The notes beneath the pieces are model-generated. The model was not told where the DNA came from, did no database searches, and saw only the letters and a list, made by a program, of their open reading frames with translations. Made by a program: the position numbers and the translations under genes. From Aulosira sp. ZfuVER01 (lineage in GTDB: Bacteria; Cyanobacteriota; Cyanobacteriia; Cyanobacteriales; Nostocaceae), in the NCBI GenBank assembly GCA_034530615.2, contig JAVRCV020000025.1:32001-96000 (forward strand): a stretch of 64,000 nucleotides of DNA. Reading direction: 5' to 3'. Below, one piece after another: positions 49,540-57,959 of this stretch. Within the stretch, counting starts at the first letter, position 1; each line of letters begins with the position of its first letter.

Positions 49540-52500
49540 CTAGACTGCACCTAGTTCTCTTAACATTGCTAACTGAGCTTGGGTTAAACCTTTAGCGCCT
49601 GTAATTTTCATTCCTTCGTATGGTCTTTTGGCTTTGAGAATTTGAAAACAATTTCCTGATTGCATATCCCATAGTCTTATGATTTCATCCTCACTAGCAC
49701 TAGCCAGGATTAAACCATCCTGAGAAAAAGCGACTGACCATACCCAATTTGAGTGACCGCTCAGAGTGTTGAGACAACTCCCTTTCTCAATATCCCAAAT
49801 TTTTACGGTTTGGTCGCAGGAGGCGCTAGCAATCTTGTGAGCATCTGGACTAAAGCTAACAGCCATTACCCAACTACTATGTCCTTTCAATGTCTGCAAA
49901 CACTCGCCTGTAGCGACATCCCAGATTTTGACTGTTTGATCGAGACTAGGGCTAGCAAGTAAGCTACCATCAGGACTAAATGCGATCGCTCCAACTCTAC
50001 CTGAGTGTCCTTTTAATACGTTGATACATCGGTTTTCTTGCACATCCCAAAGTCTGATGGTGCAGTCGTCGCTACCACTAGCTAAAATTTCTCCTAGAGG
50101 ACTAAAGGCTACTGCCGCTACTCGATCTGTATGTCCATGTAAAGTTAGGCGACACTCACCAAGGTTGAGATCCCATATTTTGATGGTGTGGTCGAAACTG
50201 CTACTAGCCAGCAATTTGCCATCTGGACTAAAGGCCAATGACCAAACTTCATCTGTATGCCCTATAAATGTATGACTGCATTCACCACTGTTGAGATCCC
50301 AAAGTTTGATTGTGGCATCTTGGCTACCTCCCGCCACTATTTCCAGGTAGGGGTGAAAAGCCACTGCTGGTAAACCTTGAGAGTACGCTCTGAACTCGTG
50401 GAGACATTCACCGCTTTTCCTATCCCAAATTCTCAACGTATTATCTCTGTGTCCACTGACTAACATTTGAGCATTAGGACTAAAAGTTACAGCTTTCACC
50501 CAGTTAGTATATCCGTGGATGCTGGCATTACACTTGCCGTTACTAACTTGCCACAACCTGATGCTTTGGTCTTCACTGGCACTGGCAAGAGTTTGGTTGT
50601 CTGGACTAAAGGCAACACCCCAGATTTGATGGCTGTGACCTTTAAGAGTATGAAGGCAAGTGCTAGTCTCCACATCCCAAATACGGATGGTTTGGTCTGC
50701 ACCACAACTAGCTATTAGCCGATTATCTTTACTCCACGTTGCATCCCATATCCATCCAGTATGACCTTGAAGAGTTCCTAGACACTGATAATTTTCAGTA
50801 CTCCAAATTTTCACCGTGGTATCACAGCTGGCACTGACTAGTAACTCTCCGTTAGGACTAAAGCGAGTTGCCCTCACCCAGTTATCATGATCTGTAATTG
50901 TATAAAGGCATTCGCCAGTTTCAACGTCCCAAATTTTCATGAGATTATCAAAGCTGCCACTTGCCAGTCGTTTGCCATCTGGACTGAAATTAACGCAGAT
51001 TACACCAGCGCTATGTCCGTAGAGAATTTTTAGACAACGACCCTCTGACAGTTGCCAAATCCTAATGGTTAAGTCGCTACTTGCACTGGCGAGCATTGAA
51101 CCATCTGGACTGAAATGAACAGAGATTACACTGTCTGTATGCTCAGATAAGGTCTGCAAACATCGACCGGACTTTAGCTGCCAGATTTTGACAGTTGAAT
51201 CATCACTTCCACTAGCAAGTATCTGTCCATCTGGGCTAAAAGCGATCGCTCGTACCCAATTAGTATGTCCTTGCAGTGTTAAAAGACGTTGTTGTTCTGC
51301 AAGTTGCCATAAATGAATCTCACAATTGGCATTACCACTTGCTATGGTTTGACCGTCAGGACTGAAAGCAATTGACATCACTCCACCGAAAGATTGAGTG
51401 AAAATAGATTTGGAAAAATAACAGTGGGAAAAATTTACACCTTGTAAATTTACATCTTGTAAATATGCTTGACAAATCGTGAGGTGAGAAAAATCATAAT
51501 TACTGAAATTGGCTTGAATTTGTCTGAGAAGATTGAGGATGTTGCCAGCTGCATATCCAGAATGGTTTAAAGGTTCTTGTTTCAATTTTTTGAGAAGTTC
51601 GTGCAACTGAAGCTGAATTTGGTTGCAACTACCCAGAGCTAACATCAAATTCTCAATAACTGGACTCAGGATCAGACGAATTTGTGCTTGTCTAAGATAG
51701 TCTTTGCTCTGAGCTTTAATTAGAGCATAATTTCTCAAAATTTCATGGTCTTGATTGATGATTTCTTTACAAGTAAAAGCTACTAATTGATCGGTAACGT
51801 ACTCTATCAACACAGGTTGAAGCGTAAAGCGATCGCCTGTACGCTCTAGAGGAAGTTTGCGTTGCAGTACTCCTAAAGTTGCAGGTAGCGCGGCTTTAGC
51901 AGTTGATAACATCAAATCTTCCCGTAACTCTACTAGGCTCACTGGTTCCCGATTGATTGCCAACCAATATAGTAGTTCACAGCACGCGGCAGGGAGCCGT
52001 TGAAAGTGCCAGGATAGAAGTTCTTGCAAGTCATGAAAAACTGGCTTGCCTTCTCTTAAAAAATCAGCAATATTGCCAAAAAATACTTCTAGGATGTGTT
52101 TACCAGCTAGTTGCAGTGCTAAAGGATTGCCATCATAAAGCCCTATCAATTCCCGCCAGTCTTCTTCACTTGCTGTAAAATCGCCAAGTTCTGCAATAAT
52201 CTGTTTTCCAGCTTCAATATCCAGCCCCTGTAACATCAAAGTGCGTACCGGACGAGTTAGCCCATCCATTAAGATGAGTTCCTGGGGTTTTTCGCGGCTT
52301 GTCAGCAGTAAGCAACTTTGATGCGGTACTTCCCCGACTTGTTTAATTAACTGTCCATAATCTTCATAATCAACTCGATACCGACCGATGGGATCTCCGG
52401 GTTGGAGGAGAGTTTCGGCGTTATCTAAGATGAGGAGACAGCGGTGGGTTCTCAGATGGTGGAGCAATAAAGAGATGCGCTCGCTAATTGCCTCTGGTAG

Positions 52501-56420: not shown

Positions 56421-57959
56421 GTGAATATTAATCAGCCACTTCAGTACATCCTAAAACTGTGTCTTCTGACGACAATTCTCAACGGTCTAACTATCAATGT
56501 CGTCGCTGCCGAAGTACAAACTTTCGGCCAAGCTGGTAGACATGGGGTTGATGGCCGCCCTGGACGCAATGGTACCTCGGCATCTGAGCAAACAATCCGC
56601 GCTAAAGCGCAACTACAAACGATTGACCTCTTTGGTAGAGATGGCGAAGCTGGAGAATCTGCTACCTCTGGTGAACACGCTTCTGAATGCCAACAGCCCA
56701 AAAAGACAACAGTTAACGTCTGCGGTGCCAAAGGTGGCAATGGCGGTAATGGTGGTGATGGGGGAAATGGTGGTAAGGGTGGAAATGCCACTATCTATTT
56801 TGAGTCACTTTCGCAACTCAAGAATGTGGTATTACGTAATGGGGGCGGGAGAGCAGGTTTAGGAGGAAATGGTGGACAGGCTGGTGATGGATGTAACTGC
56901 GCTCAACCGCGCTGGACTGTAAACTATTGCACCTGGGCATTGATGGCGCAACAAATCAATGTAGCTAACGCCCCTTGGACAGAAATCCAAAGGAAATTAT
57001 TTCGCTGTTCGGGCGATGCGTACCACGATGAACAACAAAATCGTCCCCAGCCTCCAAATTCAGATGCAAACTACCGCTATGGCTGGAAATATATTGGTCT
57101 ATCACAGCAGAAAAATTTTAGTTGTGAAAATGGGGAGAGTGGTAAACGCGGACGCAAAGGTGCAGATGGGCAACCTGGTAGTTATGGTCAAGTTTGGTTA
57201 GTCCAGGGTGATGATATCCCCAAAGAACAAATTAGTTATAGCGATCGCATCAGCCTGTTAGTTGATAAAAATATTTCTCTTCTCAAGAACAACTGGTTAG
57301 AAAAGACAGGACTACGGAGTTTACTTGGTACTGGTTCTGATGTCCGGGATAGTTACCGCTTGTTACAAACCGTCCAAGGTGCCTTTAAAGTGACTTGGCA
57401 AGCGCCTAAACGCCCACAAGAGTTAGGAGATCCACAAATGAAAGCTGTGATTAGCGAATCGGGAGAACTGCAATTTGATATTCCCGGCACATTGGAATAC
57501 AAACTCAGTAAATCGCAAAACCAAACTGTGGTTGCTATTACTGGAGGTATTCACCTCGAACGCTTAGGACGCTTTAAGTTTAAAGGATTTGATCGCTTCC
57601 GCGATCCTCGCAACTTTACGCTTTTAGATGAAGGTACGCTTCTTAGCGAGTTAAAAGCACTTAAACTCACAATCGCGCTATACCAAAACGATTCCCACAA
57701 AGGCGAGATTTCTTATCCACTTGCTCTCCAACCACCCTATCCTCAAGGTTTATCAGTTTGGGGTAATCTTTATAAAGTCAATTTAGGCGATCGCTTCGAT
57801 TCTTGGCTGCAAGCAGGGCAACCTATTCAGTATGTAATTCACATTGAACAGACTACCCGTTCTGGAGCAACCTATACCTCTGGCATGAAAATCAACTTGA
57901 TTGTAGATAAAGTTACTCCCTCTCCTGATATTCAGTACTATTCACCCTCAGAAAGCTGA
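56421..57959 (+). CDS. secreted collagen-like (Gly-X-Y) protein
   Basis: signal-like N-terminus; interrupted G-X-Y runs (GQAGRHGVDGRPGRNG, GGNGGNGGDGGNGGKGGN, GESGKRGRKGADGQPG). Confidence 0.82.
   Translation: MNINQPLQYILKLCLLTTILNGLTINVVAAEVQTFGQAGRHGVDGRPGRNGTSASEQTIRAKAQLQTIDLFGRDGEAGESATSGEHASECQQPKKTTVNVCGAKGGNGGNGGDGGNGGKGGNATIYFESLSQLKNVVLRNGGGRAGLGGNGGQAGDGCNCAQPRWTVNYCTWALMAQQINVANAPWTEIQRKLFRCSGDAYHDEQQNRPQPPNSDANYRYGWKYIGLSQQKNFSCENGESGKRGRKGADGQPGSYGQVWLVQGDDIPKEQISYSDRISLLVDKNISLLKNNWLEKTGLRSLLGTGSDVRDSYRLLQTVQGAFKVTWQAPKRPQELGDPQMKAVISESGELQFDIPGTLEYKLSKSQNQTVVAITGGIHLERLGRFKFKGFDRFRDPRNFTLLDEGTLLSELKALKLTIALYQNDSHKGEISYPLALQPPYPQGLSVWGNLYKVNLGDRFDSWLQAGQPIQYVIHIEQTTRSGATYTSGMKINLIVDKVTPSPDIQYYSPSES

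Follow-up and report, generated by a model that had tools for sequence, protein, structure and literature searches.

We analysed a 64,000-nucleotide (nt) stretch of the cyanobacterium Aulosira sp. ZfuVER01 (contig JAVRCV020000025.1, positions 32,001 to 96,000 of the forward strand), hereafter called the window, in which the gene for a large STAND protein stands back to back with a run of genes for secreted proteins. A sequence-only reading of this DNA had proposed that the STAND protein binds an array of TCCGAC repeats between them and thereby switches on extracellular effectors. The four TCCGAC copies, their spacing, the 22 nt to a TAGAGT hexamer and the 227-bp gap were all found as that reading had given them. 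The STAND gene, its domains and the elements of the gap are listed below in window coordinates.

49540..53121, minus strand: STAND gene, 1193 amino acids (aa), with a helix-turn-helix (HTH), NB-ARC, pentapeptide and 14 WD40 repeats; predicted one-component transcription activator
52858..53121, minus strand: N-terminal HTH, residues 1-88, predicted LuxR/NarL/sigma4-like fold
51787..52794, minus strand: NB-ARC module, with Walker B LLILDNAE, GNPLAL, and LQPVL in the MHD position
52639..52704, minus strand: doubled Walker A, residues 140-147 and 154-161, a tandem 14-residue duplication
49627..51399, minus strand: 14 WD40 repeats, likely two propellers, predicted sensor
53151..53156, minus strand: TATTGT, candidate -10 of the STAND gene's own promoter, found by eye in an alignment of 15 loci
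53192..53231, plus strand: array of four direct repeats TCCGAC(T/C), spacing 11, 12 and 10; predicted operator, about -72 to -34
53230..53235, plus strand: weak -35 CTGTCA, sharing two bases with the last repeat and lying 17 nt ahead of the -10
53253..53258, plus strand: -10 hexamer TAGAGT, placed on the array-to-TANNNT distance given below
53285..53309, no strand assigned: remnant of a dispersed palindromic repeat with a fifth CCGAC, outside the array

The STAND protein matched PF00931 at E 2.7e-9, above the cut-off of the profile search, and has the Walker A, Walker B and GxP motif of the AP-ATPase/NB-ARC clade of STAND NTPases; the C-terminal repeat sensor of such NTPases is represented by its 14 WD40 stretches. 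Only about 105 residues lie ahead of the NB-ARC. A helix-turn-helix fold was predicted there, the structure model being all-helical and without a wing, with a predicted recognition helix that begins at about residue 47 and bears G48, K51 and D52. By this model the protein would have a DNA-binding domain fused to a STAND module, as in MalT, AfsR and GutR. The doubled Walker A was seen at 7 of 165 loci with a P-loop and is kept within the clade of the window protein; it is not in a second HTH-NB-ARC-WD40 paralogue of the window (60282-63836; 43% identical to the STAND protein). The closest named relatives of the gene are from Nostoc, and in the model strain Nostoc PCC 7120 a closely similar gene, WP_010999686.1, also has the array; it faces WP_010999685.1 on plasmid alpha, upstream of which lies TAGAAT.

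In the 8.03-Mb genome, the four TCCGAC copies are the sole cluster of more than two among 1191 sites. The sequence-only reading had seen no good -35, and a weak but conserved one was found (CTGTCA, 4/6 match to consensus). The start site of the divergent promoter is predicted near 53265; counted from it, the first bases of the four repeats fall at -72, -61, -49 and -39, with the two promoter-proximal repeats centred at about -41.5. The TATTGT-like candidate -10 of the STAND gene was seen by eye in the same place in most close relatives of the 15-locus alignment. A palindrome, TTTACGTAAA, compared across window positions 53180-53187 and loci L003-L006, L023 and L152-L154, is kept immediately ahead of the array in the majority of close relatives, whereas the window has lost half of it; it is a possible site for a second factor.

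To follow the array beyond the window, 263 distinct HTH loci were compiled from the best matches of two whole-genome searches, 180 fetched regions, further relatives and ten paralogues of the same genome; they are the top-ranked share of more than 1100 and about 190 matches and not a random sample. The HTH was present in 248 of the 301 genomes sampled in the order. Close relatives hold two to four CCGAC/CTGAC units in the same place, though the divergent gene differs. When the window unit was searched as CCGACY (one mismatch allowed, at least three copies, 9-13 bp apart), arrays oriented away from the HTH gene were found in 14/138 HTH upstream regions, compared with 2/138 for the reversed orientation and 3/4201 upstream regions of the genome. 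A matrix that was trained on half of the first locus set and had no -10 information inside recovered 42 of 85 held-out loci (reversed 0/85; background 1/895), and 27/105 loci of a later, more distant set (control 3/105). With base 3 left free, 137 of the 263 loci scored, in 13 coded families and 62 genus labels. Unit-to-unit distances, counted in 190 untrained loci with no spacing model, peaked at 10-11 (98 and 64; reversed 2 and 2) and at 20-22, on the away strand only. The arrays beside these HTH genes are enriched, strand-specific and helically phased, enrichment being the test that the sequence-only reading had set; TCCGAC, which it had taken as the motif, is one variant only of xx[G/T/A/C]AC[T/C]. 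The nearest gene was divergent at 105/124 array loci compared with 61/108 loci without an array.

The promoter keeps a set distance from the array. In the first set TANNNT begins 27 or 28 bases past the last unit in 60 of 89 arrays, while shifted controls gave 0-7 and the background 0/1194. The hexamer at the -35 position is mostly CTGTCA, CTGACA or CCGTCA, consistently off consensus, so that multiple phased sites stand at a weak target promoter, as with known STAND activators. In a scan of the genome, an array with a -10 at +27 occurred in three places only, two of them adjoining this HTH family. The layout, the array, its phasing and orientation, the promoter spacing and the linkage to the HTH gene are all read directly from the DNA.

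We consider it likely that the window protein is a one-component STAND transcription activator with its own operator, working like MalT and AfsR. The N-terminal HTH would bind the four phased CCGAC repeats and RNA polymerase would be recruited to the weak divergent promoter of the secreted-protein genes. In the resting state, by analogy with MalT, an ADP-bound monomer may be held off by the NB-ARC; the WD40 propellers would act as ligand sensors, and signal binding would trigger the switch through ADP/ATP exchange and oligomerisation. One HTH may then occupy each repeat, head to tail on a single face of the helix. The two promoter-proximal repeats would take the class II activator position, and side-by-side HTHs on successive repeats would touch the polymerase at the weak -35, as in MalT and AfsR. 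Of the earlier proposal, the central claim, that the HTH-STAND binds the phased array and drives the divergent promoter, withstood the computational test; the lack of a good -35, TCCGAC as the family motif and extracellular effectors as the general output were not supported.

The same layout bears on repression or autoregulation, in which the HTH on the array would block the divergent promoter at its -35, or else the promoter of its own gene, until ligand releases it. The two-base overlap of the last repeat with the -35, itself a fair 4-5/6 match, would suit such a repressor, and so would the DANYIKD clade of the second set, where most arrays begin 18-32 bp from the start of the HTH gene without a -10 at +27/+28 and are perhaps autoregulatory. 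However, the array lies upstream of the -35, and in none of the 60 phased cases does it cover the -10 or start site; the -35 regularly departs from consensus, and the tested STAND regulators MalT and AfsR both activate (PMC10427625; PMC10936776). We regard repression as unlikely.

It is the HTH gene, not the target, that the arrays go with. Ten or more loci have psbA as the facing gene (L073, L090, L091, L195, L211, L218, L226, L255, L265 and L270). In five genomes, picked because each holds an HTH-psbA pair, all five psbA copies facing an HTH gene have the array (scores 19-23) and none of the 15 other copies does (9.9 or less); the six psbA matches of the Aulosira genome itself score 11.1 or less. 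Among long WD40 genes lacking this HTH, 1/20 passed the array score. The array is missing at two 82-83% homologues of the first divergent gene (53349) that have another upstream gene, and a fifth homologue of this gene has no array; two 35% homologues, apparently identical in sequence, have the array with no intact HTH gene listed. The psbA-facing STAND clade carries the array (C/A/G)TAACT, in at least three coded families. As to the psbA copies themselves, D1 residue 130 was Q in three and E in two of five checked.

These counts argue against a host-wide regulator, RpaB on HLR1 or another OmpR-type factor, reading the array while the STAND is an adjacent death or defence receptor. Known RpaB sites are carried by psbA, and HLR1, (G/T)TTACA(T/A)(T/A) twice with two spacers (PMC6525291), is close to the TTACT variant; OmpR-type factors use repeats of 10-11-bp period, and Apaf-1-like cyanobacterial STANDs are discussed as immune receptors (PMC13581612). 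However, arrays with a -10 are confined to three places of the genome, psbA copies away from an HTH gene lack them, and the repeat unit changes with the HTH sequence. The anti-phage Avs/bNACHT assignment was rejected, no PADLOC family being matched at E<=0.001 by residues 1-574 and the effector being an HTH. A host-wide regulator is therefore improbable. It is likewise improbable that the array arose by slippage or is a recombination scar carried along in a mobile cassette, with no role in binding and with a link to HTH residues that reflects common descent. Close relatives do have between 2 and 4 copies, exact duplications occur among the spacers, and independent contrasts are too few. However, in 13 coded families the core and the 10-11-bp period persist though the bases of the spacers change, the -10 lies at a fixed distance from the array, and a broken paralogue on contig C56 has lost the near-invariant A in two of its four units (one case). 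This paralogue (15016-15537) is an HTH with a stop joined to a C-terminal tail, and it faces an S-layer/OprB-like porin.

The activator reading also gains from a relation between the HTH and its repeat. Rules were written down ahead of examining the second locus set and were assessed in 113 loci with at least three units and a majority base, 150 of 263 being dropped (127 without such an array, 23 without a majority). Repeat base 3 was G in 51 of 53 loci with D52 and a residue other than D at 48, T in 20/20 loci with D48-K51-D52, and T or C in 9/9 loci with D48 and another residue at 52. It was A in all 19 loci with I, V, L, F, Y or H at 52 (13/13 within the set fetched after this rule was noted) and mixed in 8 of the 113. 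Base 5-6 was changed in 16/17 loci with R51 compared with 7/96 with K51. By this comparison, the sequence of the repeat is probably dictated by residues 48, 51 and 52 in the predicted recognition helix. The tracking of recognition-helix residues by the repeat, with few independent changes, is a strong lead, and the code should be taken as a lead rather than a result.

The HTH appears to be separable from the rest of the protein. HTH and NB-ARC identities are uncoupled, at 90/52% between L154 and L004 and 64/95% between L022 and L152, and the window protein shows 76/90% to L003 and 79/49% to L005. The same HTH with its array also occurs on AAA_35, pentapeptide and DUF4351 proteins (17/43 scanned). 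We infer that the block of HTH, operator, promoter and target is exchanged between sensor bodies as a swappable output cassette, and these parts would move as one onto different bodies. On the 3' side of the STAND gene lies a carotenoid oxygenase (RPE65 family) gene (window 46180-48480), likewise in four Nostoc records, which suggests that the sensor body is resident and the upstream block changes.

Several points weigh against the activator reading and its extensions. Training and test loci are kin, and the array counts overstate significance. By the matrix with base 3 free, 126/263 loci have no array, including the paralogue at 60282-63836 (score 11.0). In the more distant second set the -10 was at the predicted position in just 5 of 27 arrays with the fixed matrix; after a post hoc change it was there in 13/44, plus 9/44 one repeat further (controls 0-8). 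A P-loop is missing from the region read in 51 of 137 array-bearing proteins, so not every member depends on STAND oligomerisation. As to the code, D48-R51-D52 gave G and not the expected T (4/4), and R51 went with A at base 6 in just 1/5 new loci. The trees yield two to three independent pairs on supported branches, which is not significant, the pairs almost never running in the opposite direction; mutual information is spread over many columns and does not single out the recognition helix. Fold scores are below 8.

The divergent genes of the window, all on the plus strand, are as follows.

53349..54101, plus strand: first target gene, signal peptide and predicted TULIP-like (BPI/SPLUNC1/YceB-type) lipid-binding tube fold
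54324..55517, plus strand: second gene, 397 aa, signal peptide, 8 Cys, no family
55602..56207, plus strand: third gene, 201 aa, signal peptide, 10 Cys
56421..57959, plus strand: fourth gene, 512 aa, N-terminal hydrophobic stretch and Gly-rich collagen-like repeats

A homologue of the second gene also lies 3' of gene 1 in locus L002, the last 60 aa of the third gene resemble proteins from two further array loci (L061 and L133), and gaps of 222, 84 and 213 bp part the four genes in turn, the last of them lying between the third and the fourth. Extracellular effectors as the general output were not supported: a crude export call was positive for 29/105 targets compared with 903/4225 in the genome background, and targets at array loci include psbA, cupins and kinases. 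Between the secreted cluster and the second STAND gene, window 58128-60181 holds a subtilase with a PPC domain and its 92-aa upstream partner. Homologues of gene 53349 without an HTH gene (L308, upstream of 419; L307) have a different duplicated 20-mer upstream. Locus L004 has the array and promoter region a second time, 160 bp further along at 2050-2111 and ahead of the target gene. Upstream of the paralogue at 60282-63836 (contig C25 95900-96000) a weak, different repeat was seen (the matrix score of 11.0 given above), and four relatives of this paralogue have CTGATT arrays. On contig C16, near 34525, twelve tandem CTGATT-containing units with a high matrix score and no -10 are probably a coding or simple repeat. 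By eye, more distant HTH-STAND genes have other phased repeats: GTAACTTAG, CCCTCAATTTT, GTAACTTT and TTAAC, viewed upstream of 227040 on contig C41; at L158; at L013; and at L159, L162 and L168. This suggests that the phased-repeat principle reaches further HTH types.

The HTH of MalT and the LAL regulators is of LuxR type, and GutR of Bacillus subtilis is a STAND activator of a divergent gene with an N-terminal HTH, a TPR sensor and a sugar ligand. Like the window protein, MalT is a STAND activator whose ligand-driven oligomer binds several promoter sites cooperatively (PMC10427625). However, its DNA-binding domain is C-terminal and its sensor TPR-like, whereas the window protein has an N-terminal HTH in the place of Apaf-1's CARD and ends in WD40 propellers; LAL/MalT membership was rejected on these grounds. 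AfsR and the large SARPs of Streptomyces (SARP-NOD-TPR) likewise join a DNA-binding domain at the N-terminus to a STAND module and a repeat sensor, and AfsR binds 11-bp direct repeats that overlap a poor -35, one protomer per repeat (PMC10936776). In AfsR the domain is OmpR-type winged, followed by BTAD and TPRs, and two repeats centred at -29.5 end 8 bp from the -10 (PMC10936776); the family described here has a LuxR/sigma4-like HTH, no BTAD and a WD40 sensor, and its three to five repeats end 21-22 bp from the -10. The SARP (AfsR type) was rejected on the missing wing, the lack of a Trans_reg_C or BTAD match, the short stretch ahead of the NB-ARC and this spacing. A sigma70 factor was also rejected, there being weak region-4 matches only and no room for region 2 ahead of the NB-ARC. 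Proteins with r4_2 and NB-ARC, WD40 or AAA_35 were counted among cyanobacterial sigma70 architectures, without sites (PMC11119718). Some of these sigma-region-4-only 'SigL/SigR' proteins are probably of the same family as the window HTH-STAND; the window family lacks sigma region 2, and the portion of PMC11119718 consulted gives no binding site or target. The comparison points to activators and not sigma factors.

With human Apaf-1, a cell-death switch, the window protein shares an NB-ARC and about 14 WD40 repeats, and the closest Apaf-1 homologues are cyanobacterial (PMC13581612). It differs from Apaf-1 and the bacterial Apaf-1-like STANDs in its effector, a predicted DNA-binding HTH with a promoter array and not a CARD, caspase, TIR or nuclease. 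The main text of PMC13581612 does not contain the words HTH, LuxR or DNA-binding, and GutR appears as a transcriptional STAND in its reference list. For other systems, mention is made of HTH effectors and of an ECF-like HTH that hints at a transcriptional response (PMC7159879; PMC8195603). A literature search, mostly of title-level listings, found no description of this operator. From these comparisons the operator appears undescribed; the kind of activator is already known from MalT and AfsR, whose defining features the window family fails.

In the literature found, these proteins figure as WD-repeat proteins not yet studied, as unusual sigma factors or as potential immune receptors. The operator and the predicted promoter provide each protein with a built-in reporter, and the ligands of bacterial Apaf-1-like WD40 sensors become directly testable. 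It is possible, though we put it forward only tentatively, that filamentous cyanobacteria have a large set of modular Apaf-1-like receptors with a transcription output, exchangeable cassettes and a three-residue operator code, one lineage of which controls a dedicated psbA. If so, an invader or damage signal would turn on lectins, cell-wall enzymes, lipid-binding proteins or a spare D1. The swappable cassettes and a simple residue-to-base rule, if true, would be parts for ligand-gated cyanobacterial promoters, and a psbA copy tied to a STAND gene would add a level of photosystem II control not described so far.

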